Part shown: piece after piece, positions 6,931 through 57,239 of the stretch
Position numbering within the stretch: the stretch's first letter is position 1
Layout: the number at the start of each line of letters is the position of its first letter
Source: Candidatus Yanofskybacteria bacterium
GTDB lineage: Bacteria; Patescibacteriota; Minisyncoccia; 2-02-FULL-40-12; IGHO2-01-FULL-4-A
Length of the DNA stretch: 64,000 nucleotides
Assembly: GCA_016181175.1 (NCBI GenBank)
Contig: JACOZV010000002.1
Span: 115-64,114 of the forward strand
Direction of reading: 5' to 3'
Translations under genes and position numbers: made by a program
The notes under the pieces: generated by a model
Told to the model about the DNA's origin: nothing
Databases searched by the model: none
Seen by the model: the letters and a program-made list of their open reading frames with translations, nothing else

Positions 6931-6980
6931 AATCAACTAACTAAAAATCCGCCGAAAGGCGGATTTTTAGTTAGTTGATT
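6931..6980. terminator. Bidirectional rho-independent terminator (23-bp perfect stem, GAAA loop)
   Basis: AATCAACTAACTAAAAATCCGCC-GAAA-GGCGGATTTTTAGTTAGTTGATT lies between convergent rplL and the minus-strand gene 6979-8994. Confidence 0.75.
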
Positions 6981-32951: not shown

Positions 32952-32972
32952 AATCCGATAATTGAAACAAAA

Positions 32973-33731: not shown

Positions 33732-33754
33732 TTTTATAACTATCGTAGATGTTT

Positions 33755-34489: not shown

Positions 34490-34628
34490 CCCGTACGAGA
34501 CAGGATTAGGTTTAAATCTTTAAACCTTAAACCTAATCCGTATCTTTTAAGTTATCCCGTAAAAGAAAGCCTGGTTTGATTATTTGGTTTTGCTTATAAT
34601 ATAAACTCTTGCTGTCTCGTTCGGGATC
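34488..34628. repeat. Inverted-repeat element (copy 2 of the ATCCCGWACGAGACAG IR family). Its arm overlaps the ATG of the ABC ATPase gene.
   Basis: Arms ATCCCGTACGAGACAG ... CTGTCTCGTTCGGGAT are identical to those of copy 1. The interior carries its own hairpin GGATTAGGTTTAA...TTAAACCTAATCC. Confidence 0.65.
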
Positions 34629-34639
34629 CACAATAAAAA

Positions 34640-35524: not shown

Positions 35525-35560
35525 GTTAATTATGTATAATAAACTAAGAGGTGTGTTTAT

Positions 35561-35707
35561 ATGAACTATTTGATTGCCGGACTTTCTGGAGTGGCTGTTG
35601 CTTTGATAAGTAAAAAAATGGGCTTACCACTTTGGGCCGCATTACTGATTTATATAGTCGGATTCATTATTCATAAGGTGGCTGGTTTTTTAGCTGAAAC
35701 AAATTAA
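35561..35707 (+). CDS. Small hydrophobic protein (48 aa); not in the ORF track because it is under 60 aa
   Basis: MNYLIAGLSGVAVALISKKMGLPLWAALLIYIVGFIIHKVAGFLAETN with an AAGAGGTG RBS and an upstream TTGCAC...TATAAT promoter. Confidence 0.35.
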   Translation: MNYLIAGLSGVAVALISKKMGLPLWAALLIYIVGFIIHKVAGFLAETN

Positions 35708-36147
35708 ACCCGATCTCTTATGAGCATTCCTTGCAAGTGATCATATTCGTGTTGTAAGACACGCGCGAGAAACCCTCGCGCTTTTATTTTGATTTTTTTG
35801 CCGTTTTCATCAAGTGCCTTTATTTTTATTTTTTTTGAGCGTTTTATCTGGTGCCAATACCCGGGTATACTCAAACAGCCCTCCTCTACTTCGCCGGTAT
35901 TTTTGGAAAACTCCGTAATCTCCGGGTTGATGTAGGCATCTGGCGCGCCGTTTTCGTCTGCCAGATTTTTATCAATCACAAAAATCTGCAAATCATGGCC
36001 TATCTGATTAGCCGCCAATCCCACGCCATTGGACTCAACCATCTTTTTCCTCATATCAGAAATTAGCGCTTTAATTTCAGGCGTTATCTTTTCTACGCTT
36101 TTTAATTTTTTGCGAAGTATTTTTTTGGGTTCTTTTACGATTTCCAT
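35704..36147 (-). CDS. def: Peptide deformylase
   Basis: Motifs GVGLAANQIG, EGCLSIPG and QHEYDHLQG. Confidence 0.9.
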   Translation of the reverse strand: MEIVKEPKKILRKKLKSVEKITPEIKALISDMRKKMVESNGVGLAANQIGHDLQIFVIDKNLADENGAPDAYINPEITEFSKNTGEVEEGCLSIPGYWHQIKRSKKIKIKALDENGKKIKIKARGFLARVLQHEYDHLQGMLIRDRV

Positions 36148-36607
36148 TTTGAGGTAGATTGTTATTTTTTTCTTTTACCGGCTTTTTACCCCGCACCTTT
36201 TCTGGATTATTGGATTCTTGATGCGTAGCATCCTGTCCAGAAAAGGTGCGGGGTTTGTAGGCAGATAAATAAAGGAATAATTTGCCTGGTGTCTCAATTT
36301 TTTTTGCTTGTTTTAATTCGGCGAATATTTTGTATGCGCGTGGCAAGCCGATATTTTTAATTATTCCCAAATACATTCCGAATTTTTTAGGTTCTCCGCA
36401 AAAATCGGATATTTCTTTAGCAAGGGCATGCCTTTCACTATGCAGGCCATGTTCAGGTTTTTTGATGAAATATTCTATTTTTTGAAGTCCGCCGTTCAAT
36501 TCGCCCTGCTGGATGCCACATTTGCTACATTTGCCGCCTATGACATCAAAGTCATGTCCAAATTTCTGGCCGTAGCAAAGAGCGTTTTTTTGGATATCTG
36601 TGGCCAT
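36077..36607 (-). CDS. Hypothetical protein with an N-terminal zinc ribbon and a basic low-complexity tail (the tail overlaps the def start by about 70 nt)
   Basis: CxxC...CxxC (CYGQ...CSKC); C-terminal KKPVKEKNNN...KKRRKDNA. Confidence 0.4.
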   Translation of the reverse strand: MATDIQKNALCYGQKFGHDFDVIGGKCSKCGIQQGELNGGLQKIEYFIKKPEHGLHSERHALAKEISDFCGEPKKFGMYLGIIKNIGLPRAYKIFAELKQAKKIETPGKLFLYLSAYKPRTFSGQDATHQESNNPEKVRGKKPVKEKNNNLPQNGNRKRTQKNTSQKIKKRRKDNA

Positions 36608-36670
36608 TTCTACTTAAAAGATAAACCTTTCTGACTATTTTTTCAACCACTTCTTTGATATAATGGTTTT

Positions 36671-38086
36671 ATGACTAAGGTGAAAAAAGAAGTAGTTAGG
36701 GTGCGAATTGCGCCATCGCCAACGGGATATTTACATATCGGTACTGCTAGAGCGGCCCTTTTTAATTGGCTTTTTGCTCGTCACAAAAGCGAGGGCAAAT
36801 TTATTTTACGTATTGAAGATACTGACCTTGAGCGCTCGGAAAAGAGGTTTGAAGACGATATTATTTCTTCCCTTGAATGGCTTGGCCTGAAATGGGATGA
36901 GTTTTATAAACAAAGTGACAGAACCAAAATTTACTCCAAATATATTCAAAAGTTGCTGGACGACAGAAAGGCGTTTTGGTGCTATCACAGCGAGGAAGAA
37001 TTAGAAAAAGAGAGACAAGAGCAGATGACAAACAAAAACATGCCCAGGCACGTGTGCAGTTTTCGTGACAATGTAGATGCGGCCGATGGTCGGCAAGGAA
37101 TCATAAGATTAAAGATTGACCCGGATTCAACAAGAAAAATTTCGTTCTTGGATGTTATTCGAGGAAATATTGAATTTGAAGAACGATTGCTAGGAGATGT
37201 CAGTATCGCCAAGTCGGTTGACGTGCCGCTTTATCATTTTGCGGTGGTGGTTGATGATTATGAGATGGATATAACGCACGTAATTCGTGGCGAGGACCAT
37301 ATTGCAAATACGCCCAAACAAATTCTTTTGCAAGAAGCACTTGGTTTTGAACAGCCGCAATACGCGCACTTGCCGTTGATACTAGGGCCTGACCGGTCTA
37401 AATTATCTAAGCGCCATGCCTCAACATCTATTGCAGAATACCGCGGATTAGGTTATTTGCCTGATGCTATAGTCAACTTTCTTTTCCTTTTGGGGTGGAC
37501 GCCGGATAAGTCGGAAAATGAAATTTTGACCAAGAACGAGGCAATTGAGCAATTTAACTTGGAAAAAGTTCATAAAGCGGGTGCGATTTTTGATATTAAA
37601 AAGTTGAACTGGATAAATTCACAATACATAAAAATGGAGAACGACGAAGGTCTGGCTAAATTGGTTCAGCCATTCGTGGCAAAACATTTTGGCCATCAAG
37701 AGAAAGAATTAATTGTAAAAATTGCTCCACTTTTGCGGGAACGATTGGAATATCTGGATCAAGTCAAGGAATTTCATTTTTTCTTCAAAGAACCGGAATA
37801 CAGCAAAGAGTTACTGCAATGGAAGTCCAGAAGCGAGGACGAAGTCAAAAATTCTCTTGCGGAAGTTAAAAAAGTAATTGAGGAAATCGGTACGGAAGAC
37901 AAAAGCCGGCTGCGCCAAGAGTTGGATGAACTTGGCAAGCGCCTTGAAGACAGGGGATTGGTGTATTGGCCGTTTAGGGTTTCATTAACGGGTGAAAAGG
38001 CGTCTCCCGATCCGGTGGATGTGGCTTTTGTGCTTGGAAAGGAAATGACTCTTCAAAGAATGGGTTCGGCGACTAAAAAGTCATAA
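36671..38086 (+). CDS. gltX: Glutamate--tRNA ligase
   Basis: HIGH-type motif (PSPTGYLHIGTARAAL) and KMSK-type motif (KLSKRH). Confidence 0.9.
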   Translation: MTKVKKEVVRVRIAPSPTGYLHIGTARAALFNWLFARHKSEGKFILRIEDTDLERSEKRFEDDIISSLEWLGLKWDEFYKQSDRTKIYSKYIQKLLDDRKAFWCYHSEEELEKERQEQMTNKNMPRHVCSFRDNVDAADGRQGIIRLKIDPDSTRKISFLDVIRGNIEFEERLLGDVSIAKSVDVPLYHFAVVVDDYEMDITHVIRGEDHIANTPKQILLQEALGFEQPQYAHLPLILGPDRSKLSKRHASTSIAEYRGLGYLPDAIVNFLFLLGWTPDKSENEILTKNEAIEQFNLEKVHKAGAIFDIKKLNWINSQYIKMENDEGLAKLVQPFVAKHFGHQEKELIVKIAPLLRERLEYLDQVKEFHFFFKEPEYSKELLQWKSRSEDEVKNSLAEVKKVIEEIGTEDKSRLRQELDELGKRLEDRGLVYWPFRVSLTGEKASPDPVDVAFVLGKEMTLQRMGSATKKS

Positions 38087-38088
38087 AA

Positions 38089-39432
38089 ATGTTAAAACTC
38101 TCTAGTAATTCCCACAAATTAAGCCGAGGGGTTTTAATTTTTACTTTGCTTGCTGCTTGTTATTTACTACTTGCAGCGCCCGTTTTTGCCCTTGACGATA
38201 CAAGTCCCGTTAGAAGTCAGACATCAGTAGCGATGTCTGCAGATCTGCAAGCAGATCTTACTTCTAACGGGACAAGTCAAAAAATCCTTGACCTGCGCAA
38301 ACAAATTGAAGAATTGACAAAGCAGGCGGAGCAATATAAAGGCACCATTGCGCAAAAACAAAAACAAGCGGATACTCTGAAAAAACAGATAGACATTTTA
38401 AATAATCAGATTTTACAACTCCAAACCAAGATAGTAATTACTGATCGTCAGGTTACTTCAACAAAACTTGAGATTGTGGACTTGGAAGGGCAGATATTTG
38501 ATGCCAGTGAAAAGATAAATAAACAAAAGTTGGCAGTAGGGGAGCTTCTCTTGTTTCTTTACGAGCAAGACAGGTTAAGCTTGCTGGCGGTATTGCTCAA
38601 AAGTCCGCGGCTTTCTGATTTTACCGACCAGGCGCACCAAGTCCAGAACTTAAACAATAAACTCGTAGGATTATTGACGGAGCTCAAGACGCAAAAAGAA
38701 GACTTGGAACAAGGTAAACAAAAGTTGGATTTGAAAAAGTCGGAACTCGAGGCGCTCAACAGTAAACAAGTAAGCCAAAAAATTGCATTAAGCGGCAATA
38801 AAGTTGGCAAAGACGTGTTATTGGCGCAAACAAAGGGCCAGGAAGCCAAATATCAGCAACTTTTAAGCAGTGTAGAAAAGAAAAAAGCAGAATTTTTCGC
38901 TGAGTTGCAAAAATTTGAAGCAGAAGCGGTAAAAAGCGGAGCTTTTATTGTTCACGTTACCGCAGATTCGGTACCGATGCGTGGCAGTAAAATTTTCCAG
39001 TGGCCATATGACGACTATTATCTCACCCAAGGTTATGGTATGACGGCATACGCGCGGCGCGGCGCCTACGGAGGAGCGCCTCATAATGGGATAGATATTG
39101 CGGCCGGTTATGGCACACCTATCAGGCCAGTTGCGAGTGGCGCGATATTGGCAAGCGGTTTTAACAATGGTTTCGGCAACTGGGTAGCGGTTAGGCACGA
39201 CCGCGGTCTCGTGACTGTTTACGCCCACATGCGCAGTCCAAGCGGTCTTGTTAACGGGACGCCTGTAACAGCTAACTCAATAATCGGCTACGAGGGCTCA
39301 ACCGGTAATTCAACCGGTTCGCACTTGCACCTCTCACTGTACCGTGATTTCTTCACTTATATCAACGACAAAAACGGCCAACTATACTTCAACTATTTCG
39401 ATGGCTCCCTAAACCCACTTGACTATTTATAA
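38089..39432 (+). CDS. M23-family peptidase with an N-terminal coiled coil (EnvC/NlpD-like murein hydrolase)
   Basis: Signal/TM, a long coiled coil, and a C-terminal LytM domain (HNGIDIAAGYGTPIRPVASG, HLHLS). Confidence 0.8.
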   Translation: MLKLSSNSHKLSRGVLIFTLLAACYLLLAAPVFALDDTSPVRSQTSVAMSADLQADLTSNGTSQKILDLRKQIEELTKQAEQYKGTIAQKQKQADTLKKQIDILNNQILQLQTKIVITDRQVTSTKLEIVDLEGQIFDASEKINKQKLAVGELLLFLYEQDRLSLLAVLLKSPRLSDFTDQAHQVQNLNNKLVGLLTELKTQKEDLEQGKQKLDLKKSELEALNSKQVSQKIALSGNKVGKDVLLAQTKGQEAKYQQLLSSVEKKKAEFFAELQKFEAEAVKSGAFIVHVTADSVPMRGSKIFQWPYDDYYLTQGYGMTAYARRGAYGGAPHNGIDIAAGYGTPIRPVASGAILASGFNNGFGNWVAVRHDRGLVTVYAHMRSPSGLVNGTPVTANSIIGYEGSTGNSTGSHLHLSLYRDFFTYINDKNGQLYFNYFDGSLNPLDYL

Positions 39433-39523
39433 GCAGTATGTAAAGATATAATGGTCAGTGTTGCACTTTAAAAACCTATTTTAGTTGGTTTTATAGCTAA
39501 AACATCATCAGGAGGATACAAAA

Positions 39524-39895
39524 ATGGTCAGACAGGTTATAGTACTAGAAAAAGAGTATACTTGTCCTTTGTGTTGTAGTGTGTACAAAAAACTGGAAAA
39601 AGCTAAAAACTGTCTAAAAAAACACAATGATGCCTGCAGGAAAATTTTACCAAATTACGAAATTGGTGATCGGGTTTTAACCCACCTTTTTAATGATGCC
39701 AACCATGGAAAAGAACATACTACTATTGTAAGAATTAAAGGAGACCTATTTGATATGGAACTTTTGGTTGAAAATGATAGAGGAGAACGTTATTGGGTCC
39801 AGGTGATAAGATATGGTACTTTAAATCTACAAGATAATCCCACGTTAGGCTTTAGAGTCTGCGTGCCCATCATTAAAAATTATAGCCATAACTAA
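39524..39895 (+). CDS. Hypothetical protein with an N-terminal Cys cluster
   Basis: 123 aa with the Cys cluster CPLCC...C...C; followed by the terminator hairpin CCGGCCGAAAAGCCGG. Confidence 0.4.
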   Translation: MVRQVIVLEKEYTCPLCCSVYKKLEKAKNCLKKHNDACRKILPNYEIGDRVLTHLFNDANHGKEHTTIVRIKGDLFDMELLVENDRGERYWVQVIRYGTLNLQDNPTLGFRVCVPIIKNYSHN

Positions 39896-39947
39896 TTATG
39901 TCCGGCCGAAAAGCCGGTTTTATTTTTATTTATCCACACCCCCATCT

Positions 39948-39972
39948 TACTTAGGAGTTGAACTCCTAAGTA
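39948..39972. repeat. REP-like 25-bp palindrome (left flank of the HUH transposase gene)
   Basis: TACTTAGGAGTTGAACTCCTAAGTA. Confidence 0.7.
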
Positions 39973-39993
39973 AAGTCAGATAGAATAACGCAA

Positions 39994-40641
39994 ATGATAA
40001 AACCCAAATTTACAACTGGCGAGTTTTACCACATATTCAATAGGGGAAATAATAAGAGGGCGATTTTTTTGAAACCATTTGATTTAATGAGGTTTTTGCA
40101 AAGTATGCAGGAGTTTAATACCAAAGAACCAATTGGCAGTATTTATATCAATTCATTCAAAAACGAAGAACTTAGAAGTTCAACTCCAAAGTTAGAGAAA
40201 ATAGTTGATTTTGTATGCTACTGTTTAAACCAAAATCATTTCCACATTCTTATTAAACAAATAGCGGATGGTGGTATAATTAAGTTTATGCATAGACTTG
40301 GTACTGGATACACAAACTATTTTAATGGAAAGAATAAAACTAGCGGAGCTTTATTCCAGGGGAGATATAAAGCTATCCATGTAGATACTAACGAGTACCT
40401 ACTTTATTTAAGTGCCTACATTAATCTGAATTACAAAGTCCACCAACTTAGGAGTTCAACTCCTAAGTTGTGTAAATCAAGCTGGGAGGAATACACTAAT
40501 GTCATGAATGGATTTTGTAATAAAAAAATAATTATGTCGCAGTTTAACAGTGCGGCAAATTATAAAGATTTTGCCGAGGAAGCTTTAAAAATAATAAGAA
40601 ACAGAAAGGATATGGAAAAATCTCTAAACCTTATCACTTAG
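39994..40641 (+). CDS. tnpA: HUH Y1 transposase, IS200/IS605 TnpA-like / REP-associated tyrosine transposase (RAYT)-like
   Basis: HuH motif HFHILI, catalytic Tyr context GALFQGRYK, N-terminal YHIFNRGNNKRAIF. Flanked by identical palindromes. Two internal copies of the palindrome are translated in-frame as LRSSTPKL (aa 59-67 and 152-160). The stop codon lies inside the right palindrome. Confidence 0.7.
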   Translation: MIKPKFTTGEFYHIFNRGNNKRAIFLKPFDLMRFLQSMQEFNTKEPIGSIYINSFKNEELRSSTPKLEKIVDFVCYCLNQNHFHILIKQIADGGIIKFMHRLGTGYTNYFNGKNKTSGALFQGRYKAIHVDTNEYLLYLSAYINLNYKVHQLRSSTPKLCKSSWEEYTNVMNGFCNKKIIMSQFNSAANYKDFAEEALKIIRNRKDMEKSLNLIT

Positions 40642-40659
40642 GAGTTGAACTCCTAAGTG
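40635..40659. repeat. REP-like 25-bp palindrome (right flank)
   Basis: CACTTAGGAGTTGAACTCCTAAGTG. Confidence 0.7.
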
Positions 40660-40682
40660 AGTGATTTTGATACAATTAGTGC

Positions 40683-41939
40683 ATGACTAAAATACTAATT
40701 CTTGGTGGGGGATTCGGTGGTATACGTGTGGCTTTGGATTTGGAGAGTAAACTTGGGAAAAGGGGAGATACGAAAATTACTTTGATTGATAGAAATAACA
40801 GTCAAACCTTCCATCCGTCTTTGTATGAAGTAGCCTCCATTTATGGTGTTAACCACGAACATCCGTATCACACCAAACTCCGTGGTACGATTTGCATTCC
40901 ATTTAGTAAAATTTTTAAGGGAAAGAAAGTAGAATTTGTACAAGCTGAAATTAACCATATAGATTTGCAAGCTAAGCATGTCGTTACAAACGGCGGTGCT
41001 GTTATTGAATTTGATTATCTCGTGCTGGCTTTCGGTTCGATCGTTTCTACCTTTGGAACACCCGGTGTTGAGGAATACGCATTTAAGTTTAAAACAATTG
41101 AAAACGCGCTTATGCTTAACGACAAAATAGAGCAATTATTTATTGAGGCCAGTGAAAATAAAAGATCCCTGCCGATTAATATATTGATAGGCGGGGCAGG
41201 CTTCAATGGCATAGAGTTGGCGGCGGAGTTTTCAAATTGCGCGGTTCATGTAGCCCATCGGCATGCTATTGCCCAGCCCAATTGTGCGGCTATTACCCTG
41301 ATAGAAGCCACACCGGCCATATTGCCGATGGTTTCAGATAAAGAGAGAAAAATAATAGAAAAACGACTGAAAAAACTCGGCATCAACATACTTACTAATT
41401 CTCCTATTGAAGAAGTCGGCCCGGATTATGTGAAAATAAAAAACGGCGATGTTTTAAGTGGCGATCTTATTGTCTGGACGGCTGGGGTAAAAACTCTCGA
41501 TTTATTTAAGGGTATTTCTGGTCTTGAGCTAGATGATCGCGGCAGGATATTTGCGAATGAATTTTTACAGACAAAAAACCATACTAATATTTTTGCTATA
41601 GGTGATAACATTGTTTTTATTGATCCTAAAACTCAAAAACCAATTCCTCAAATGGCATTTCTGGCAATAGAGCAGGGGAGAGTGGCGGCAGAAAATATTA
41701 TCCGACTCATCAACAGTAAAATGCAGTTAAAAAAATATGAACCAGATTATGATATTTGGATTGCGCCGGTTGGGGGCAAGTATGCCTTGGTGCACCTAAA
41801 CGGATATAATTTTTCCGGCCTTTTGGGATATATTGCTAGAGAAGTGGTTGATTTAAGATATTTTTTGAGTGTTTTGCCACTTTTTGAAGCCATAAAACTA
41901 TTTTTTGAAGATGCAAGAGTATTCAGCAGGAACGATTAA
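40683..41939 (+). CDS. Type II NADH dehydrogenase (NDH-2) / FAD-dependent pyridine nucleotide-disulfide oxidoreductase
   Basis: N-terminal GGGFGG dinucleotide-binding motif and a second GxGxxG (IGGAGFNG). Confidence 0.75.
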   Translation: MTKILILGGGFGGIRVALDLESKLGKRGDTKITLIDRNNSQTFHPSLYEVASIYGVNHEHPYHTKLRGTICIPFSKIFKGKKVEFVQAEINHIDLQAKHVVTNGGAVIEFDYLVLAFGSIVSTFGTPGVEEYAFKFKTIENALMLNDKIEQLFIEASENKRSLPINILIGGAGFNGIELAAEFSNCAVHVAHRHAIAQPNCAAITLIEATPAILPMVSDKERKIIEKRLKKLGINILTNSPIEEVGPDYVKIKNGDVLSGDLIVWTAGVKTLDLFKGISGLELDDRGRIFANEFLQTKNHTNIFAIGDNIVFIDPKTQKPIPQMAFLAIEQGRVAAENIIRLINSKMQLKKYEPDYDIWIAPVGGKYALVHLNGYNFSGLLGYIAREVVDLRYFLSVLPLFEAIKLFFEDARVFSRND

Positions 41940-42008
41940 GGGTGTGGATAACTTCATTGACCTGATATATCAAATGTGGCATAATATAATTATAACAAAA
42001 GAGGGGAG

Positions 42009-42362
42009 GTGCTGATTTTGAAAAAAAATCTAGTTTACACAATCTCATTTCTTGCTGTTATCGCATCAATTATGTTTGTAGTTAGATATTCTTCGGCGTA
42101 TTCAATTAATGAAACTTCTTTGCCTTTACCCTCAATTCTAAACATTAATCCTTTTGACAGCGATTTATTTAAAAATTTGGTTCCCAATATCGATTTAGGT
42201 ACTACTATGCCAAACCTTAATCTTTTGAATATCAATAACCTTTCTAGCAATGACTTCGTAAGCGTTCTAAGGGCGGTTGCCATTCTAGCCATTAACCTTT
42301 TCTTAATTGTTATACAGACAGTGGCGGGCATATTGAAGGCCTTACTGCCGTTCCTGACTTAA
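42009..42362 (+). CDS. Hypothetical small membrane/secreted protein
   Basis: 117 aa with N- and C-terminal hydrophobic segments. Confidence 0.35.
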   Translation: MLILKKNLVYTISFLAVIASIMFVVRYSSAYSINETSLPLPSILNINPFDSDLFKNLVPNIDLGTTMPNLNLLNINNLSSNDFVSVLRAVAILAINLFLIVIQTVAGILKALLPFLT

Positions 42363-42530
42363 CCGGAAGACTTATTTTTAGTAACAGAGAGTTAGAACAA
42401 TTCAGAGTGGTACGTCGCATAACTACGATTGTGCGACGTTATGTTTATATTTAAAATTGTGTCCACTCGCCTATTCCCCATAAAAAAGCCGCTTATTAGC
42501 GGACTTTATTTTTATAAATTTCTATCTTTT

Positions 42531-46885: not shown

Positions 46886-47299
46886 TTATGGATTGCAATT
46901 TCCGGCAAGGATGTAGCCGGCTGATATTGCCGCGGTTTCGGTGGCGAAAGTAATTTTGTTTTTTTCGGTGATTTTGGAAGCGCTTGGGCACCATGGGAAA
47001 TGATAGATTTTGTTGGCGCTATTTTTAGAAGCAACGACGAAACTAGGCGTTAGGTTGTAGGTGCTAGGTTCTAGCTTTGAATTTTGAATCCCCTTTTCAT
47101 TGTTTCCTGTTGCCTGCCGACTATTAACCGGTTCAGTTATTGTAATTGGCAACTTTTGCTTATGTAATATTGAAATTTTACCAAGGTTGAAACTGATCAT
47201 TGAAATGAAAATAACAACGAAAGTTAAAACAATATCTGACTGGTACATTTTGACTAATTTTAGTAATTTTGCTAACATAAGATTAATAAAATGGCGCAT
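46886..47299 (-). CDS. Hypothetical membrane-anchored protein (the real start may be the internal Met near 47248)
   Basis: One TM (IVLTFVVIFISMISF); C-terminal H/C-containing motif YHFPWCP...AGNC. Confidence 0.4.
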   Translation of the reverse strand: MRHFINLMLAKLLKLVKMYQSDIVLTFVVIFISMISFNLGKISILHKQKLPITITEPVNSRQATGNNEKGIQNSKLEPSTYNLTPSFVVASKNSANKIYHFPWCPSASKITEKNKITFATETAAISAGYILAGNCNP

Positions 47300-47563
47300 A
47301 CAAAAGCTAAATCTACAACTAAGTTAGGCCGCGATTCCGAATCCAAACGCTTGGGCGTCAAGCTTTCAGACGGCCAGGTTGCTATTCCAGGCAACATTAT
47401 TATCCGTCAGCGTGGCAGCAAGGTTATTGCTGGTTCGGGTACTCGCATGGGCAGTGATGATACTATCTATGCCATAAATACTGGCAAGGTTAAGTTTTCA
47501 ACCAAAAAAAAGAACAATTTCGATGGCTCCAGACGATTGGTTAAAATTGTAAGCGTAGTATAG
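47291..47563 (+). CDS. rpmA: 50S ribosomal protein L27
   Basis: MAHTKAKSTTKLGRDSESKRLGVK, the L27 signature. Confidence 0.9.
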   Translation: MAHTKAKSTTKLGRDSESKRLGVKLSDGQVAIPGNIIIRQRGSKVIAGSGTRMGSDDTIYAINTGKVKFSTKKKNNFDGSRRLVKIVSVV

Positions 47564-47577
47564 GTAAAGTCAACCCC

Positions 47578-47632
47578 ATCTAGATCACATAAAAAACATG
47601 GTTATAACCATGTTTTTTATGTGATCTAGATT
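47578..47632. terminator. Bidirectional terminator (about 24-bp perfect hairpin)
   Basis: CATCTAGATCACATAAAAAACATGG-TTATAA-CCATGTTTTTTATGTGATCTAGATT lies between convergent rpmA and rplI. Confidence 0.75.
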
Positions 47633-47645
47633 AATAATCCTACGT

Positions 47646-48092
47646 CTATTTATTAGCTGAAATTAAAATCTTAATTTTGCTTTTAACTTCCGGGTGCAGT
47701 TCTATTTCAACTTCGTGTTCACCTAACATCTTGAGATGTTGTGGTAAGTTTATATTTTCTTCTTTAAGGTTTATCCCCTTCTCCTTGACGGCCGCTAGTA
47801 TTTTTTTCTCATTAACCGAACCGTAAAGATGCCCTTCTTCATTGGCATCTTCCTGGATTTCAATAGTTAGACCTTCCAGTTTTTTGGCGAATTCTAGCGC
47901 CCCCTCCTTACCTGTTTCATATTGTTTCTCGCGTTTTGACTTCAATATTTCTGCCTGTTTTTCAGCATCGGCTGTTGCGGGTTTTGCCAAATTTTTTATG
48001 AACAAAAAATTGCGGGCATAACCATCAGCCACATTCTTGATATCCCCTATTTGGGCTACACCTTTTATGTTTTGCAAAAAAATTACTTTCAT
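47646..48092 (-). CDS. rplI: 50S ribosomal protein L9
   Basis: [31 protein letters not shown]9-typical. Confidence 0.9.
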
Positions 48093-49302: not shown

Positions 49303-50118
49303 TTATTTATTCAGTGGGATTTTTTGTAAGTTATGATATTTCCAAAAAAACTTTATTGCACTGGCGATATGCCAGCGCGTTTTTTTATTAAATATCACAT
49401 CCAGTAATCCCAGGCGCGAACTGGATTCACGCTGATGGTAATGATACATTATGGCCTCTGGGTAATACACAACCTTGTAATCATTGTGCCAAAACCTTCT
49501 GGCCCAGTCAACATCTTCAAAATACATAAAAAATCTTTCATCCATGCCGCCAACCTTTTCAAGCGCTTCCTTGCTCACCATTATAGCCGAGCCCATTATC
49601 CAGTCCGGTGTTTGGATTTTGGACGGATCGGCATCGGCCACGAGAAAATCATCCAGGACTTTTTTAAATCGTCCGAATCTACCCAGAAAACTACGCCGAG
49701 CAAGTATTGTGGCCGGTTTATAATAACCGAAATATGTATTCTGGTGGGTTCCGTTGAAATTGAGCATGCGCGGCCCAAGCATACCAATGTCTGGATGTTT
49801 TTCCATATAGTCAGTCATTTTTATAATTGCGTTGTCAGTAACGACCACGTCTGGGTTAAGGACTAAAATATACTTGCCGTTGGAGTTCTTGATTCCCGTG
49901 TTAACCCCCCGCGCATAACCCAGATTTTCTTTAAATGACAGATATTTTATTTCCGGATACTGCTCAACAACCAAATCTCTTGCCTGACGTGAAATGGTCG
50001 AGTCAATAATAATAGTTTCAAGGTCTATGTTTTTGCATGTTTCCGCAAGCGATTTCAAGCAGAGCTTTAAAAGTTCGGGTGTCTGATGGTGGACGATAAT
50101 TATTGTTAGCTTGCGCAT
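49303..50118 (-). CDS. Family 2 glycosyltransferase
   Basis: GT-A fold N-terminus (IIIVHHQTPELLKLCLKSL), DxD-like motif. Confidence 0.75.
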   Translation of the reverse strand: MRKLTIIIVHHQTPELLKLCLKSLAETCKNIDLETIIIDSTISRQARDLVVEQYPEIKYLSFKENLGYARGVNTGIKNSNGKYILVLNPDVVVTDNAIIKMTDYMEKHPDIGMLGPRMLNFNGTHQNTYFGYYKPATILARRSFLGRFGRFKKVLDDFLVADADPSKIQTPDWIMGSAIMVSKEALEKVGGMDERFFMYFEDVDWARRFWHNDYKVVYYPEAIMYHYHQRESSSRLGLLDVIFNKKTRWHIASAIKFFWKYHNLQKIPLNK

Positions 50119-50120
50119 GA

Positions 50121-51194
50121 CTAATCAGTTAGAATATTTTTAAACAGATTTTTAATTCCTTCAAAATTTGCTTCTTTGGGTAATAATATATATTCGCCTT
50201 TTTCGGTTTTGGTTTCATAGACTAAATTTTCCGTGGTAATTACATAATTTTTTGCTTTATTTTTAGAACTAAAGGTATTTGCCAGTGAAAGCAAATCGCC
50301 GACATCCCAAATTTGAAAGTCGGTGCGTATGTTATCTTTTAGATCGGAAAGCAGAGAAGTTACTTTAACCGGATTGGACAAAAATCCCAAAGACAGTGCT
50401 TTATTCTTAATGATCTTAATTATTTCTTGTTGTCGTCTTGCCCTGTCGAAATCGCTTGTTGAATACCTGGACCGGGCATAATACAGTGCTTGCTCGCCGT
50501 CTAAATGATTGTCTCCGGCCGGCAGAAAGAACTCATAACCCCACTGATTTTTTTCTTCAAACGGTTTGGCAAGGTAAACATCAATACCGCCAAGATTGTT
50601 TACTATCTCCTTGAATGCATTAAAATCAACGACCACGACATTATCAATGTAGATGCCAGTAATCCTTGATATTATTTGTTTAGCCAAAGTTAGCCCGCCG
50701 CCATTTTCCAATCCTCTCTCATAAACCTCATTTATCCTCCCCTTTAATTTTATGTTTTTGCCATTCTGTATTTCTGCTGACATGTCCATATAAAGGTCGC
50801 GTGGTATGGAAATGGTTGCAGCTTTTTGTGTTACCTTATCAATACTCGTTACCATTATCGTGTCAGTAAGCAAGCCGCCCTCTTCTTCAATGGCTATTTC
50901 ATCTTCTCCTCTTATGCCCAAAATCAAAATATCCAGACGATCCGGCTCTTGTCTGGGTATCGGGTTGGGGTCAATTGTCGGTTTAGACTCGTCGCCGATA
51001 TTAAAAATACCAGCTACACTTTTCCACCAGGAGCTATTTTCTACGGAGATCGTGTTATACACCATCCCCAATTGATACACATAATAACCGACAACAATCA
51101 ATAAAACCAGAAAAATACAAAATAATGGTTTTTTAAACCATCGTTTTTTTGATTGCAATTTTTGAAAATTATCCGGCAGTATCATATGATCCAT
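50121..51194 (-). CDS. LytR-CpsA-Psr (LCP) family protein
   Basis: N-terminal TM; LCP domain containing ISIPRDLYMD. Confidence 0.8.
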   Translation of the reverse strand: MDHMILPDNFQKLQSKKRWFKKPLFCIFLVLLIVVGYYVYQLGMVYNTISVENSSWWKSVAGIFNIGDESKPTIDPNPIPRQEPDRLDILILGIRGEDEIAIEEEGGLLTDTIMVTSIDKVTQKAATISIPRDLYMDMSAEIQNGKNIKLKGRINEVYERGLENGGGLTLAKQIISRITGIYIDNVVVVDFNAFKEIVNNLGGIDVYLAKPFEEKNQWGYEFFLPAGDNHLDGEQALYYARSRYSTSDFDRARRQQEIIKIIKNKALSLGFLSNPVKVTSLLSDLKDNIRTDFQIWDVGDLLSLANTFSSKNKAKNYVITTENLVYETKTEKGEYILLPKEANFEGIKNLFKNILTD

Positions 51195-52328: not shown

Positions 52329-52742
52329 ATGGCCAAGGCAAGAGAAAGGTTAGAGTGTGCGCTGTCGAGTTTTTGTAAAATTAAGATAGAGGAAAAGGCG
52401 GCTTATTTTACACCCAACATGCTGTTACAACATCTTGGTGATATGTGGGGAGACAAAAACTCACTGCCATCTCCGCAAAAGCTAACCAGATCTCTATTTT
52501 CTTTGTATGAAAACGGCAAAGTGATAATATATTCGATCCTGGCAAAGGAAACCGATGGCATTATAAGATTAAGTTTTATTGGTTTGATAATGTGTTATCC
52601 GGAAGAATTTTCCCAGTCCCAGAAATTATCGCCGCAGTTACTGCGAAAAGTAAAAAGGCGCGTTCATCGAACATTGCGACGTCTGTTAAAGAATAGATCA
52701 AGACCCACGGGAGGAAAATTAGGAGGGAAGCGAAGTAAATAA
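52329..52742 (+). CDS. Hypothetical protein (its 3' part overlaps the minus-strand ligase gene; weakly supported)
   Basis: 137-aa ORF with a basic C-terminus; partly antisense to 52576-54159. Confidence 0.25.
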   Translation: MAKARERLECALSSFCKIKIEEKAAYFTPNMLLQHLGDMWGDKNSLPSPQKLTRSLFSLYENGKVIIYSILAKETDGIIRLSFIGLIMCYPEEFSQSQKLSPQLLRKVKRRVHRTLRRLLKNRSRPTGGKLGGKRSK

Positions 52743-54159
52743 TAATCGGTAACTGGTAACTAGTAACTGATGTCAAAAAATTGCGATGCGATTTTTTCAG
52801 AAGAAGCCAAAGGAACCAAAGCGCAAGAATTAATGCTGGCAAGCCCGTTTCGGCGGCGATATGGAGGTAAAGATTGTGCGCTGACGAACCTGCCTTGGCT
52901 CTGGCCAAATCTTCCCCCACCACGGCCGGAAAATTTCCTATTCCGACACCCAGCAATGGGTGTTTTATTATTGAACGGATTGAATCTTTCCAAATTTCAA
53001 TTCGGCGTGCATTGGAGGTTTCGGAGATATCTAAAACGGAGCGGGCGCGTTTGGCAAGCAAACCAGTTGAATCCTTTTCTGCCATGAACTGATTTGAGGC
53101 GATAATATAATATGCCACGCCGAATAATAAAAAGAAAATAACCAAGAAAGAACTAATATAGGCAAAAACTGCACGACATGTGATGTTGGGCGTGCACGAC
53201 ATGCGATGTCGTGCAATAAGAAAAATGGCCCAAACGGAAGAAGCGGCTCCGGCAGCCCAAATGCCGCGGGTGCCAGTGAGAATAAGTGCTAGAAAAATTA
53301 CAGGAATAAAAATAATAATCACAGAAGCGCGGGACTGTAGCATGGTTTTGAAATTGCCACTTTTTTCAGTAACTCGTTTGAGAGCGATAGTCATAACTGC
53401 CGGTAATCCCAAAAGCATAAATATGGGAAAAGAATGTGAATCTGGGAAAATTGAGAACATTCGCAAAGATAATTGATTGCCGAAATAAGCAAACCACGTA
53501 TTGGCTTTAATGGCCGTTTCAGCCCACACATTGCCGTACATGTTACGTTCTACTACGCCGCCCCAGAAATCTACGAACTGAAAAATATCCATAAAATATG
53601 TAGAAACAAGCTGAACCATGCCGACCAGAGCCACAAATATCGTAGGTATAGCAACATTTTTGATAATTCGCTGACAAAAATCTTGGTTTTTGCGAATTAA
53701 ATCATAAATTACAATACCAATCATAGAAAGATTAACAAAATAGATAATTCTTTTGACTGCTAAAACATGGCTTTGTGCTTGAGAGATTGATAATATCATC
53801 AGCAATAACAAGGCCAAGAGAATAAAAGACGAGCGTGAAAATCTGGGCATAATCTTTGGTTTTAATACCCAAAACCATTTCAAAAAAATCAGTCCGGAAA
53901 AAATACGCCACATATTTAGAGAATCAAAGCCGGCGGTTATGGGGATGGCGACAAAAAATGGAATTGAACGGACGAAGAATACAGTTGAGTTTTCAAGTGA
54001 CGCCATCAATACATAAACTGCAAGCGCAATTGTCCAAAAAGGCACAACCGTCCGCGGCAGAATCCCGCTTGCTACCAAGGCGATCACCGCGGGTTGAGAT
54101 ACAAATAAAATATTTAGGGTCGAATAATTTCCAAAAATTTGTCTGTATGTTTTTGCCAT
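52576..54159 (-). CDS. O-antigen ligase/polymerase (Wzy_C)-like polytopic membrane protein containing a (GTAACTG)x3 repeat
   Basis: At least 11 TM segments; SAHNLYLHIAAETGLPALILALWFLW matches the Wzy_C signature. The repeat at 52748-52768 encodes SYQLPI. Confidence 0.7.
   Translation of the reverse strand: MAKTYRQIFGNYSTLNILFVSQPAVIALVASGILPRTVVPFWTIALAVYVLMASLENSTVFFVRSIPFFVAIPITAGFDSLNMWRIFSGLIFLKWFWVLKPKIMPRFSRSSFILLALLLLMILSISQAQSHVLAVKRIIYFVNLSMIGIVIYDLIRKNQDFCQRIIKNVAIPTIFVALVGMVQLVSTYFMDIFQFVDFWGGVVERNMYGNVWAETAIKANTWFAYFGNQLSLRMFSIFPDSHSFPIFMLLGLPAVMTIALKRVTEKSGNFKTMLQSRASVIIIFIPVIFLALILTGTRGIWAAGAASSVWAIFLIARHRMSCTPNITCRAVFAYISSFLVIFFLLFGVAYYIIASNQFMAEKDSTGLLAKRARSVLDISETSNARRIEIWKDSIRSIIKHPLLGVGIGNFPAVVGEDLARAKAGSSAHNLYLHIAAETGLPALILALWFLWLLLKKSHRNFLTSVTSYQLPIIIYFASLLIFLPWVLIYSLTDVAMFDERAFLLFAVTAAIISGTGKILPDNTLSNQ
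52748..52768. repeat. Heptanucleotide tandem repeat (GTAACTG / GTAACTA)x3 inside the Wzy-like gene
   Basis: GTAACTGGTAACTAGTAACTG. Confidence 0.7.
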
Positions 54160-55217
54160 GTATATTTTGTCAAAATGCTCTGACGGGCATTTTTTATTTC
54201 TTGTCGTTTTGTCTCGTTGGTTAATCCCTTCGTAATTGCTTCGGCGATTGAATTGGGATCATCAGGGTTAGAAACAAAAAAGGCGTTATCCCCAAAAATC
54301 TCATGGCTTATTTCAGAATCAGACACAACCGCTGGTACGCCATGTCCCAACGCTTCAAGTGGCGGTAAGCCGAAGGCTTCTTTGGAAGAAACGTATACTA
54401 ACAGTTTAGCATGAGCGTAAAGCTGGACTAGTTCATTTTCGCTGACGTATTCTTTATAAATTATTTTTTCTTTGCCGATACGATTATTTATTTCTTTAAC
54501 AAGTGTTTTTATAATTGGTGGGTTATATTTATCTTTGCCGATTGCGACTAATTTTAAATCTGGAAAGCGTGATGATATTAATTCAAAAGCCAACATGGTT
54601 TCGCGCAGGTGTCTTCTTGGAAATGCTTGGCCGACATAGAGAATGTAATTGGTAATTGGTAATTGGTAATTAGTAATTGGTTTGGGTTGGTCAACACCGA
54701 GTTGGTTTACTACAATGCGGGTAGGGTTTATTTTGAACAACTGAGCCATTTCTTTTTTTGAAGTTTCGGAGATAGCCATAATTTTGGTAGCGTGTCTTGC
54801 TGTCCACCAGCCGGCAAAGATTTTGTAGGCAAGTTTGTAACGGAAGGGCAATGTACTGGTATGAATTTCGTAATAAATATCCTCGGTCAGCATAACCAGT
54901 GATTTGCCGAGAAATAAAATCGGAAGCATGTAATTAGGCAAAAACATTAGATCGAGTTTTTCGAACCAAAGTTTAATTGGCAGAAGTAAATAATAATACA
55001 AGCTGAATGATGATACTCCCGATACTTTCTTTACAAAAATAGGATTATCCAAAAACGGTAATTTGGGAATGTGTGATTTGAAATAAAGAAAAAATCTGAA
55101 CTCGCTGGTGAGTTCAGGTCTTAGTGATATTTCTTCAAGAAGATTTTTTACGATTCTACCGATCCCCCATGACTCGAGACCCTCAATAGATTCGCATTCT
55201 ATGCCAATTTTAAGCAT
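54114..55217 (-). CDS. Family 1 (GT4-type, GT-B fold) glycosyltransferase containing a (GTAATTG)x5 repeat
   Basis: EAFGLPPLEALGHGVPAVVSD motif. The repeat at 54645-54679 encodes PITNYQLPITNY in the inter-domain linker. Confidence 0.8.
   Translation of the reverse strand: MLKIGIECESIEGLESWGIGRIVKNLLEEISLRPELTSEFRFFLYFKSHIPKLPFLDNPIFVKKVSGVSSFSLYYYLLLPIKLWFEKLDLMFLPNYMLPILFLGKSLVMLTEDIYYEIHTSTLPFRYKLAYKIFAGWWTARHATKIMAISETSKKEMAQLFKINPTRIVVNQLGVDQPKPITNYQLPITNYILYVGQAFPRRHLRETMLAFELISSRFPDLKLVAIGKDKYNPPIIKTLVKEINNRIGKEKIIYKEYVSENELVQLYAHAKLLVYVSSKEAFGLPPLEALGHGVPAVVSDSEISHEIFGDNAFFVSNPDDPNSIAEAITKGLTNETKRQEIKNARQSILTKYTWQKHTDKFLEIIRP
54645..54679. repeat. Heptanucleotide tandem repeat (GTAATTG)x5, with one GTAATTA variant
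   Basis: GTAATTGGTAATTGGTAATTGGTAATTAGTAATTG. Confidence 0.85.
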
Positions 55218-56121
55218 TTATTTTTCCGAACCTTCCTTTATAAAAATCTAATACCCCAGCTAATATTGCTTTTGATATTTCAACATTGTGCCTCAATATA
55301 ATTTTAGTGAGCTGTTTAATTATAATAAAAAATGACCAAAATGGCAAGGAGAATTTAACCCAAAACGGCCCATTTTTACAGTTAAATAAGTGAGCATTTC
55401 TGTAGTGGTAGTGGAGTAATATGGGTGCTCCCAATGATGAGGTAGACGACGATTGTTTATGATGAATCAGTTCTTCAGGCACAATTTTGAGCTTGTAGCC
55501 CGCTTTTTGCGCGCGCAGGCAGTAATCAGCATCTTCAAAATAGAGAAAATAGCGTTCATCAAACAATCCAATCTTTTCTAAAACTTCTCGTTTGATAAGC
55601 ATACAAGCTCCTACAACATACTTAGTGGTTGAACTACTAAGTGCACTTAGTAGTTCAACCACTAAGTGCGAAAGTTCGGGTTTTAGCCAGCCAATTTTGC
55701 CGCCATAAATTATTTGGTTACCCTCGTTTATTGCGGGTCCTGCAATGCCTATTTGCTGATCAGATTCTGTTGCTTCTACTAATTTTGATAACGCATCCTT
55801 TCTAATTGTCGTATCGGGGTTCAATATCAAGACATAATCAGCGCCATGCTCTAACGCATGTTTGATACCCAGATTATTTCCGCCAGAATAACCAGAGTTG
55901 TAAGAAGTAGTAAGTAAAAAGTAACAAGTAGCAGAACTTGTATTGCCTGTTTTTTCTATCCAATTTCTAACCTCGTCGATTGCATTGACATCTGAGCCGT
56001 TATCCACTATAATTGTCTCATAGTTCTGATAGTCCAGTTCTTTAACAGAATTAAGGCACCTAATGGTGTCTTGAGAATTATTATATTGGAGGATGACAAT
56101 GAAAACTTTAGATTGATTCAT
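55210..56121 (-). CDS. Family 2 glycosyltransferase with an in-frame REP-like palindrome doublet
   Basis: GT-A N-terminus (VFIVILQYNNSQDTIRCLNSV). The 46-bp palindrome at 55621-55666 is translated as LVVELLSALSSSTTK. Confidence 0.75.
   Translation of the reverse strand: MNQSKVFIVILQYNNSQDTIRCLNSVKELDYQNYETIIVDNGSDVNAIDEVRNWIEKTGNTSSATCYFLLTTSYNSGYSGGNNLGIKHALEHGADYVLILNPDTTIRKDALSKLVEATESDQQIGIAGPAINEGNQIIYGGKIGWLKPELSHLVVELLSALSSSTTKYVVGACMLIKREVLEKIGLFDERYFLYFEDADYCLRAQKAGYKLKIVPEELIHHKQSSSTSSLGAPILLHYHYRNAHLFNCKNGPFWVKFSLPFWSFFIIIKQLTKIILRHNVEISKAILAGVLDFYKGRFGKINA
55621..55666. repeat. Perfect 46-bp palindrome made of two inverted REP-like units (CTTAGTGGTTGAACTACTAAG / CTTAGTAGTTCAACCACTAAG). 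It is related to the RAYT-flanking palindrome CTTAGGAGTTGAACTCCTAAG.
   Basis: CTTAGTGGTTGAACTACTAAGTG|CACTTAGTAGTTCAACCACTAAG; the second half is the exact reverse complement of the first. Confidence 0.8.
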
Positions 56122-57239
56122 TAGATTGATACCTTTTTCACCAAATCCGTTATCTCGTTTTTAAACCTTTTTTCTGAAAACCGTTCTGCGGTTTTTTTTA
56201 TTTTTTCGGAATCATAATTGGGCAAATTTTGTTTTAGACGGCGGATGCCGTCGGCTAGCACCTCTTCGGTTGGGTCGTCAAAAAATTCGCCATTTATGCC
56301 TTCTTGTATATATTCTAACGCGCCGCCGCGCTTGAGCGCCAATACTGGTTTGCCGTAGCTCATTGCTTCGATGGGTGTAATGCCAAAATCTTCCTCTTGC
56401 GGCATTATAAACGCTATACAGTTTTGATAATAATGGGGCAGTTCTTTGTCAGAAACAAAACCCAACATTTTAATATTTTTTAAATTTGAGATTTGAGATT
56501 TGAGATTTTTGTTTTCGGGGCCATTTCCTATTATGATGAGAGGCCAGCCTAATTTATTAAAAGCCCCGATTGCTATATCTATATTTTTATGTTTAAAAAG
56601 ACGGCTTACAATTAAAAAATAACCTTTAGTAATTGGTAACTGGTAATTAGCAACTGGTAATTTGGTTACCGGCGGGTATATTACGGAAGAATCTCGCTGG
56701 TAGTATTTCTTTATGCGTTGGCGGACGTTTTCAGAAATTGCGACAAAATGATCAACTCGTGTTGAGGCGTGCCGGTCCCAGATTCTTAGAAAGTGTTGGA
56801 CCAAAGATGCCCACAACTTGGGTGTAAAACTGATTTCTTTTTTATATTCTGCGTGCCAGTCCCATAATTGCCTGGTGGGGCTGTAACAATAACAGATGTG
56901 TTTTGTGCGCGGTTTGAGCACAAGTCCTTTGGCAAATGCGACAGATGATGAAATTACCAAGTCAAAATCACTTAAATCAATAGTCTCAATGGCAATTGGC
57001 AGAAGCGGAGTTAGCAATTTATGACTTTGGAAAATGCGATAGAAGTTTTGAGTAAAAGTTGTTCTAATTTCTGCTTGCGGCAAAAACCAATCGGTAAATT
57101 TTTTATTATAAAAAAGTGTATAAATCGGAGCTTGCGGAAATATGTCATGAAATGTTTTCAATGTCTTTTCTGCCCCGCCAACACCTAAAAGCCAGTCATG
57201 AATTAAAGCAATCTTTATGTTTTGGGTATTGTTTGACAA
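56121..57239 (-). CDS. Family 1 (GT4-type) glycosyltransferase containing a degenerate (GTAAYTG)x5 repeat
   Basis: EDFGITPIEAMSYGKPVLALKRGGALE motif. The repeat at 56629-56663 encodes LPVANYQLPITKGY. Confidence 0.8.
   Translation of the reverse strand: MSNNTQNIKIALIHDWLLGVGGAEKTLKTFHDIFPQAPIYTLFYNKKFTDWFLPQAEIRTTFTQNFYRIFQSHKLLTPLLPIAIETIDLSDFDLVISSSVAFAKGLVLKPRTKHICYCYSPTRQLWDWHAEYKKEISFTPKLWASLVQHFLRIWDRHASTRVDHFVAISENVRQRIKKYYQRDSSVIYPPVTKLPVANYQLPITKGYFLIVSRLFKHKNIDIAIGAFNKLGWPLIIIGNGPENKNLKSQISNLKNIKMLGFVSDKELPHYYQNCIAFIMPQEEDFGITPIEAMSYGKPVLALKRGGALEYIQEGINGEFFDDPTEEVLADGIRRLKQNLPNYDSEKIKKTAERFSEKRFKNEITDLVKKVSI
56629..56663. repeat. Degenerate heptanucleotide tandem repeat (GTAATTG GTAACTG GTAATTA GCAACTG GTAATTT)
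   Basis: GTAATTGGTAACTGGTAATTAGCAACTGGTAATTT. Confidence 0.7.

Follow-up and report, generated by a model that had tools for sequence, protein, structure and literature searches.

A perfect palindrome translated within a glycosyltransferase gene of Candidatus Yanofskybacteria is a doublet of a hairpin associated with a RAYT-like transposase

We analysed a 64-kb stretch of DNA from Candidatus Yanofskybacteria (Candidate Phyla Radiation, CPR, or Patescibacteria), called the window below, and all coordinates are positions in this window. Within a GT2 glycosyltransferase gene it carries a perfect 48-bp palindrome, which is an inverted doublet of a short hairpin unit also found around and inside a RAYT-like transposase gene (RAYT, REP-associated tyrosine transposase; REP, repetitive extragenic palindrome). 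The doublet belongs to a hairpin family associated with RAYT-like genes, it is read in frame in a loop of the enzyme, it occupies the same position in orthologs, and its nucleotides are conserved above the level of the gene. We consider it probable that the doublet is an old and tolerated passenger of this RAYT-linked family, resembling a REP or a REPIN (a REP doublet forming one hairpin), which has been inherited in the GT2 loop and has kept its symmetry by hairpin-templated correction.

The palindrome, its two units and the host gene are as follows.

55620-55667, no strand: perfect palindrome, inverted doublet of the hairpin unit (repeat search, folding and direct frame reading)

55621-55641, + strand: hairpin unit 1, CTTAGTGGTTGAACTACTAAG, with the GTTGAAC orientation on the + strand and one internal G.T mismatch

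55646-55666, - strand: hairpin unit 2, exact reverse complement of unit 1

55210-56121, - strand: GT2 glycosyltransferase gene, 303 amino acids, GT-A fold (Pfam and structure model), residues 152-167 encoded by the palindrome

Direct reading of the window confirmed 55621-55666 as CTTAGTGGTTGAACTACTAAGTG immediately followed by CACTTAGTAGTTCAACCACTAAG, the perfect 46-bp palindrome of the initial annotation, and extended it by one base pair on each side; the arms (55620-55643 and 55644-55667) are 24 nt each, 100% complementary and without spacer. The number of perfect palindromes with 24-nt arms expected in 64 kb is about 2e-10 (64000 x 4^-24, our own arithmetic), and the 21-mer, with at most three mismatches, has 7 matches in the window against 0.00 in 100 dinucleotide shuffles; the palindrome is therefore not due to chance. 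Folded as single-stranded DNA it reaches -23.8 kcal/mol (z = -7.7 relative to shuffled sequence), and as RNA -38.6 kcal/mol (z = -7.0).

Seen as units, the doublet consists of two 21-nt hairpins with a 4-nt spacer between them, together forming one perfect 24-bp stem. The GT2 unit differs from the transposase-associated unit in three bases (18/21 identical), and the halves are thus variants within the same hairpin family, as had been claimed. The further claim of compensatory change at two positions stands for one stem pair inside the unit (G-C to T-A), but three bases differ, and the other changed pair has become a mismatch, G.T or A.C depending on the arm; exact complementarity in the doublet exists between the arms only, not within a unit. 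When read directly, frame 1 of the palindrome gives TAG, frame 2 gives TGA and frame 3 is open. The GT2 gene uses this sole stop-free frame, with the resulting peptide H-LVVELLSALSSSTTK-Y. Translation, Pfam and the GT-A model agree with the in-frame position first described, and LSSSTTK in the GT2 gene has the same frame and orientation as LRSSTPK within the transposase gene, again as first noted.

The 303-residue open reading frame (ORF) matches Pfam Glycos_transf_2 (PF00535) with 65.1 bits, where the cut-off is 23.3 bits. Its AlphaFold model has a pLDDT (predicted local distance difference test) of 88.8, and Foldseek matches it to GlfT2, RmlT and SpsA with E values of about 1e-12 to 1e-13. 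In the model, residues 152-167 are the sole poorly predicted part of the catalytic domain: pLDDT drops under 50 for residues 157-164, and secondary structure is lacking from 153 to 166. This places the palindrome residues in a low-confidence loop of the GT-A fold, in line with the surface loop that the initial annotation had named as a point to check. Among 88 homologs this loop is 10-60 amino acids long and unrelated in sequence outside the carriers of the doublet. As modelled, the palindrome encodes a disordered, hypervariable surface loop.

The hairpin unit recurs in the window at a transposase gene.

39994-40641, + strand: RAYT-like Y1/HUH transposase gene, 215 amino acids, with HUH residues H82 and H84 and catalytic tyrosine Y142 (Pfam and fold match)

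39950-39970, + strand: hairpin unit CTTAGGAGTTGAACTCCTAAG, 24 nt upstream of the transposase start codon

40171-40191, - strand: degenerate hairpin unit in the transposase gene, LRSSTPK slot 1 (motif search and alignment)

40447-40467, - strand: exact hairpin unit in the transposase gene, LRSSTPK slot 2 (motif search and alignment)

40637-40657, + strand: hairpin unit over the transposase stop codon (motif search)

Exact copies of CTTAGGAGTT[G/C]AACTCCTAAG start at 39950, 40447 and 40637 and a degenerate copy at 40171, the two internal units being oriented opposite to the two flanking ones. The ORF matches Pfam Y1_Tnp (PF01797) with 29.4 bits (cut-off 23 bits), and H82, H84 and Y142 are invariant in sets of 13 and of 28 homologs. 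Sequence-only searches of the PDB with the transposase, by phmmer and with a 13-sequence profile, found nothing relevant, and a fold search was therefore needed. The model (pLDDT 84) has as its top fold match 4ER8_A (E 2e-5, target template-modelling score 0.71), which is the E. coli RAYT (TnpA_REP) bound to a REP hairpin; the transposases of IS608 and ISDra2 rank behind it. The Pfam match, the invariant HUH and tyrosine residues and the best fold together substantiate the earlier RAYT label, and some of the homologs have been named 'REP element-mobilizing transposase RayT' by the Joint Genome Institute (JGI).

The hairpin family was described from a scan with one genome per species and both NN positions free (at least 120 stretches), and all family counts given here are among the matches listed. 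It is a 21-23 nt hairpin, aCTTAG-NN-GTTGAR-C-NN-CTAAGt, with a 9-bp stem (ACTTAGNNG / CNNCTAAGT) and a 5-nt loop TTGAR, in which the NN positions are complementary in 104 of 146 units. The matches are mostly from Patescibacteria, among them Saccharibacteria, Yanofskybacteria, Lloydbacteria, Paceibacteria and Parcubacteria. The window holds 8 units, 4 of them at the transposase gene, and one Yanofskybacteria genome holds at least 11; several variants and at least two transposase paralogs occur together in a Yanofskybacteria genome. Single units are far commoner than doublets, as an inverted partner within 50 nt was seen for 12 of 142 units.

The association with RAYT-like genes is not confined to the window. 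Thirteen loci have a near-full-length transposase homolog (42-64% identity), and 2 more have partial matches. Loci L119, L114, L087, L055 and L031 share the layout of the window, where one hairpin precedes the start codon, others lie in frame within the gene and one sits at the stop, and at each of the first four a single NN variant is used by all units of the locus. Among transposase homologs with both motifs (n = 115), hairpin-type peptides are found at both internal positions in 41 and at one in 25.

Two further observations concern the hairpins inside the RAYT-like gene. Both in-frame copies fall in low-confidence loops of the transposase model (residues 51-70 and 151-160), and in the loci read in detail the internal hairpins carry the NN variant of the flanking copies. 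Judged from the sequences, these in-gene hairpins could reflect either self-regulation or repeated invasion.

Translated copies are also found in other genes. The 96 family-like copies fall into four groups: 49 not covered by any long ORF, 13 flanking transposase genes, 8 within such genes and 26 (about 27%) inside non-transposase ORFs of at least 150 codons. These 26 are restricted to the three stop-free frames, read as LxVExL (10), LxxSTxK (10) and LxVQxL (6), and the host genes confirmed by Pfam encode the arginyl- and cysteinyl-tRNA synthetases (ArgRS and CysRS), topoisomerase I (TopA), UvrA and a class-V aminotransferase. One such copy is in the window.

23028-23048, - strand: diverged hairpin unit, in frame in the CysRS gene (22647-24062, - strand), read as LGSSATK

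At one and the same codon, the CysRS hairpin is read as LGSSATK in the window, as LRSSTPK in L032 and as LSGSTTK in L112, with proteins 66-70% identical, and two of its pairs are compensated between the window and L032. The corresponding ArgRS comparison, at 33% identity, places the doublet in an indel region and shows nothing beyond that.

Searches for other identities of the hairpin gave little. At gathering thresholds Rfam returned two tRNAs only and no match to the hairpin family, and a scan of viral contigs gave only 4 hairpin matches, so that the family is not noticeably phage-borne. A DNA uptake sequence was rejected in our own judgement, as the density of about 8 units in 64 kb is too low, and a mimic of the tRNA T-arm was rejected from reading the sequence, the pairing register being unfit. 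The complementarity of the flanks is 45-53% at positions 2-3 versus 29-40% further out; this is too weak to argue that insertions create or prefer palindromic flanks, or for a target rule or a target-site duplication.

Turning to the orthologs of the GT2 gene, the closest five homologs (P0001, P0002, P0003, P0006 and P0010), at about 70% amino acid identity, all have a near-identical peptide in the same place, and the palindrome is at the same codon and phase in four of the five, those with DNA. It is perfect in L002 and in L004/L036, with arms of 23-24 nt and a 2-nt spacer, and imperfect in L001 and L003. L036, from a Yanofskybacteria genome, is syntenic with 51.5-59.3 kb of the window at 72-78% nucleotide identity. 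In a neighbour-joining tree of GT2 homologs built without the loop, the carriers form one cluster together with P0005, a non-carrier nested among them, whose loop consists of five ATTACNA heptads.

These comparisons bear on three points of the initial annotation. It had reasoned that the doublet would not be an insertion if orthologs held the same peptide without palindromic symmetry; the orthologs that share the peptide keep the symmetry as well. As to the insertion itself, the doublet is shared by a clade of orthologs and is old and inherited, not recent. The suggestion of a recombination or slippage hotspot is not supported, as the doublet persists at about 70% protein identity and a heptanucleotide array takes its place in one clade member only, P0005. 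From sequence comparison the doublet thus appears as an old acquisition in a permissive, fast-changing loop rather than a recent insertion.

A second GT2 gene of the window provides a further comparison.

49303-50118, - strand: GT2 paralog without hairpin doublet (ortholog comparison with L068)

The 75%-identical ortholog of this paralog at L068, also from Yanofskybacteria, has a 42-nt doublet where the paralog has none, and as far as the two sequences tell, a whole doublet was gained or lost here.

The loop of other GT2 orthologs contains repeats of different kinds. Heptanucleotide tandem arrays occupy it in L127, L128, L135, L143 and L206, and different palindromic inserts are present in L133 and L142, where the L142 insert is GC-rich and lies inside a heptad array with CTACAAACTACAAAC duplicated on either side. 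Recurrent loop peptides, for example LPRRQAGKTRNLKP and ENSRATSRGSRVGGMADF, are seen in P0029/P0030/P0033, P0084/P0088/P0092/P0111, P0081 and P0108/P0117. Since such inserts and peptides recur in the loop of different orthologs, their sequences suggest that more small in-frame elements exist in these genomes.

Among the carriers, nucleotide identity within the 48 bp is 0.79-0.92, compared with 0.70-0.78 over the full gene and, at third codon positions, about 0.5-0.6, although the peptide encoded by the palindrome is part of a disordered and hypervariable loop. Across the five sequences, both partners have been substituted in 4 of the 24 palindrome pairs, and 93% of the cells are paired. One long palindrome and a structure of two hairpins are equally paired (93.3% each), and these counts cannot tell the two apart. 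Each unit contains an internal mismatch in the doublet of the window and, as an independent case, in that of L022, while the arms are exact reverse complements of one another, which means that changes were mirrored between the arms and not within the units.

Based on these data we suggest the following course of events. The doublet would have entered the GT2 loop in the ancestor of the ortholog clade and been inherited since. Placement of the units may be the work of the Y1 transposase, with hairpin DNA in single-stranded form as its substrate, by analogy with the IS200/IS605 and RAYT enzymes, for which transposition of such DNA is known (PMC3733652, PMC6006769). Copies landing in genes would survive solely at sites where the frame remains open and extra residues are tolerated. 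The GT2 enzyme stays intact because the doublet is read in the sole stop-free frame and its length is a multiple of three, and the GT2 copy would then be a tolerated passenger with no role in the enzyme. The symmetry of the arms is probably kept by intramolecular template switching (quasipalindrome correction), in which one arm serves as template for the other and passes its changes on; template switching is a known route from imperfect to perfect inverted repeats (PMC7202029, PMC3820800). Further, we speculate that continued recognition by the transposase possibly helps to keep the symmetry.

It should be noted that several observations weigh against this course of events. The flanking bases show weak complementarity only. 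Strict monophyly of the carriers was recovered in 1 of 100 bootstraps and is near-unsupported, because P0005 nests among the carriers. We looked for a GT2 ortholog with a clean empty site and found none, the loop always being filled by other sequence; and since even the shortest GT2 loops fall only about 8 amino acids short of that of the carriers, the event was more than a plain gain of 48 bp with the rest of the loop left as it was. The covariation is suggestive only, as 31-40 of 500 shuffles reach the observed values with five sequences. The GT2 units are of the TGG/CTA type, as opposed to GGA/TCC around the sole transposase seen in the window. Finally, conservation of in-gene hairpins at saturated synonymous divergence could, on sequence grounds, reflect selection for function.

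This last point leads to an explanation that we regard as unlikely, namely that the RAYT-like protein and the hairpins form a domesticated system throughout the Patescibacteria, the hairpins being selected as recognition sites in single-stranded DNA or RNA. In its favour, pairing is retained in the hairpins that the GT2 and CysRS genes have at orthologous codons, despite two-sided changes and at near-saturated synonymous divergence. If true, the coding sequence of essential, envelope and RAYT genes would bear a second, structural signal.

Rather improbable, in our view, is that the carriers result from independent hits by each lineage's own hairpin variant at a hotspot in the loop, or from repeated overwriting by other genomic copies. 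The other palindromic inserts of L133 and L142 and the recurrent peptide inserts in the same loop agree with a hotspot. Moreover, the Yanofskybacteria GT2 doublet has the variant TGG-GAG-CCA, which equals both the transposase-associated copy L041 and the ArgRS doublet L019 of the same genome, and several variants and at least two transposase paralogs exist within that genome. But codon position, phase and order of units are identical in all six genes, with nearly identical spacing, the GT2 locus is syntenic and the carriers cluster in the tree. The copies in the window, L001 and L003 are imperfect or hybrid and match no canonical unit, which fits divergence in place.

We give slightly less credence still to the doublet as a selected cis-acting element, be it an mRNA hairpin, a DNA cruciform or a binding site, that tunes GT2 expression; possible routes are translational pausing, RNase processing and on/off switching of a glycan gene by palindrome-mediated deletion. 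Such a role is in accordance with nucleotide identity in the palindrome above that of the rest of the gene, including conserved synonymous positions, with pairing kept via two-sided changes in the GT2 and CysRS genes, with the very stable predicted RNA hairpin, and with a glycan cluster (Wzy_C, LytR_cpsA_psr, GT4 and GT2) rich in in-frame heptanucleotide repeats of the contingency-locus kind. On the other hand, the same units are present in ArgRS, CysRS, topoisomerase I and UvrA, where off-switching would be harmful, and in most GT2 orthologs the doublet is absent and the loop is of unrelated sequence. The paralog at 49303-50118 and L068, although 75% identical, differ by a whole doublet, and Rfam has no match. 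No variants of the window strain in length or sequence were seen, the other assemblies giving the transposase region only and not the GT2 region.

Local origin by slippage or template switching in a low-complexity loop, with a chance likeness to the transposase hairpin, seems very improbable: the loop does form repeats locally, as the heptanucleotide arrays of L127, L128, L135, L143 and L206 illustrate, but the unit agrees with the transposase-flanking repeat at 18 of 21 positions, a likeness for which chance predicts 0.00 matches, and identical units occur at other loci, in many genomes and in unrelated genes. Genomes with the GT2 doublet have the unit at further sites as well. An artefact of assembly or amplification, such as a chimeric inverted junction, is scarcely credible, for although chimeric reads can yield perfect palindromes and the exact GT2 protein is missing from the protein collection (best match 73% identical) while contigs of the strain's transposase region are present, the same doublet is found at the same codon in independent assemblies (four Logan runs and an NCBI metagenome-assembled genome, from different samples and projects), and neither the reading frame nor the catalytic motifs downstream are disrupted. 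The contigs in question are three Logan contigs (L207-L209; SRR12113430, SRR12113383 and SRR12113384), 100% identical to window 32299-42509, and short-read assemblies may break at a perfect palindrome.

Returning to an inherited passenger of a RAYT-linked family, the closest known counterpart is the REP/REPIN-RAYT system (E. coli TnpA_REP, 4ER8; Pseudomonas REPINs). In both, short hairpins adjoin a Y1/HUH gene with a 4ER8-like fold, inverted doublets are able to form one long hairpin, and a single genome can host several variants of the repeat along with transposase paralogs. Like REPs, which are imperfect stem-loop palindromes of 20-40 nt, the repeat is a short imperfect palindrome that forms a stem-loop and flanks the transposase gene on both sides (39950 and 40637 in the window). 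REPINs are vertically inherited over long times (bioRxiv 10.1101/2021.07.10.451892), and so is the GT2 doublet. As in a REPIN, the window doublet consists of two inverted units with a short spacer in a single long hairpin, and the same holds for L002 and L004; unlike REPINs, doublets are not the prevailing form here (12 of 142 units).

There are also several differences from known REPs. One criterion for REPs is a GTAG or CGTC tetranucleotide conserved at the base of the hairpin (PMC3733652, PMC6006769), whereas the conserved ends here are A-CTTAG and CTAAG-T, and GTAG appears in the variant with NN = TA only. High copy number and a mainly extragenic location are further characteristics of REPs; here the number of copies seems low, with 8 units in the 64-kb window and at least 11 listed for one Yanofskybacteria genome. 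The stem is AT-rich, and the core sequence is common to many Patescibacteria lineages instead of being species-specific. About 27% of the family-like copies lie within non-transposase genes, and the transposase gene itself has in-frame copies.

Intragenic REPs have been described by Di Nocera et al. 2013 (PMC3733652) as whole units in ORFs of known proteins, often replication and repair genes, that are read as extra residues and sometimes stand at the same site in orthologs; GTAG repeats were reported there in Proteobacteria, Cyanobacteria, Chloroflexi and the PVC group. Those repeats thus belong to other phyla and have GTAG or CGTC tags, whereas the present ones are from Patescibacteria and tag-free. 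In the literature searched we found no report of intragenic REPs in Patescibacteria or of a perfect inverted doublet in a gene, and a full-text literature search gave no paper linking RAYT or REPIN with Patescibacteria.

Other translated palindromes are less similar. Rickettsia palindromic elements (RPEs) are found in frame in unrelated genes and have been judged compatible with fold and function of the host protein (PMC10969869). In-frame palindromic repeats in unrelated genes are common to both, the likeness being functional only, as RPEs are about 100-150 bp, confined to Rickettsia, CGTC-tagged and with no dedicated transposase known, in contrast to the 21-23 nt and RAYT-linked units described here. 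PARCELs (palindromic amphipathic repeat coding elements; PMC2996958) are described as intragenic tandem repeats encoding an amphipathic peptide that have spread horizontally among Mollicutes and other microbes; they too are translated palindromic DNA repeats, but nothing in that description ties them to the Patescibacteria hairpin family.

With the IS200/IS605 elements (IS608 and ISDra2) the transposase shares fold, HUH and tyrosine motifs, and there, as would be the case here, DNA hairpins are recognised as landmarks of the element. Unlike there, we saw no IS-like element that has a left end differing from its right end and a fixed target sequence, and the units found dispersed are individual 21-nt hairpins that lack coding capacity. 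Template-switch mutagenesis of quasipalindromes (PMC7202029, PMC3820800) gives paired changes and perfect symmetry without selection by copying from arm to arm, and it is a feature of replication in general and does not define a family of elements; we infer its action here from the pattern in the window and L022.

REPs within genes and in-frame palindromic elements were thus already known, and what is new is a tag-free hairpin family across many CPR genomes and housekeeping genes. The finding extends REP/RAYT biology to the Patescibacteria and in an unusual form: AT-rich, free of GTAG, common to many lineages, with about one quarter of the copies translated in housekeeping and envelope genes and with copies in the transposase gene. 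For annotation, the hairpins account for odd inserts of 7 and 16 amino acids (LxVExLS, LxxSTxK) in Patescibacteria proteins. For evolutionary studies, orthologous in-gene hairpins with kept pairing can separate structural selection from symmetrisation by template switching.

The GT2 gene is part of a cell-envelope glycan cluster, which comprises the GT2 paralog (49303-50118), LytR_cpsA_psr (50121-51194), an O-antigen-ligase-like Wzy_C gene (52576-54159) and GT4 genes at 54114-55217 and 56121-57239 around the GT2 gene. Short heptanucleotide tandem arrays of 3-5 copies were seen at 54645-54681, 56484-56508, 56629-56660, 52748-52769 and 55900-55930, and further arrays in the window at 5328, 35271, 47051, 52072 and 62955. 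Several are translated in frame within the envelope-glycan genes. The peptide PITNYQLPITNY of the GT4 gene 54114-55217 comes from (ATTACCA)n. The GT4 gene 56121-57239 has (CTCAAAT)n, read as NLKSQISNLK, as well as heptads of the (CAGTTAC) type, read as ANYQLPIT, and a SYQLP motif is present in the Wzy_C gene. As a change by one unit would shift the frame, these arrays could, from their sequence, be contingency loci. The GT2 surface loop and the surrounding glycan gene cluster are strongly prone to repeat accumulation.

Other repeats were noted elsewhere in the window. Beside the CysRS gene, 21993-22419 consists of 18/36/72-nt tandem repeats with the core GAGTGAGCCA, where overlapping minus-strand ORFs encode repetitive peptides. 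A second perfect palindrome, of 54 bp (47578-47631; ATCTAGATCACATAAAAAACATGGTTA followed by TAACC...), is located between the convergent ORFs 47291-47563 (+) and 47646-48092 (-), and its sequence is unrelated to the hairpin family. Equally unrelated is a perfect inverted repeat at 6931-6980, with 23-nt arms and a 4-nt loop (AATCAACTAACTAAAAATCCGCC/GGCGG...).

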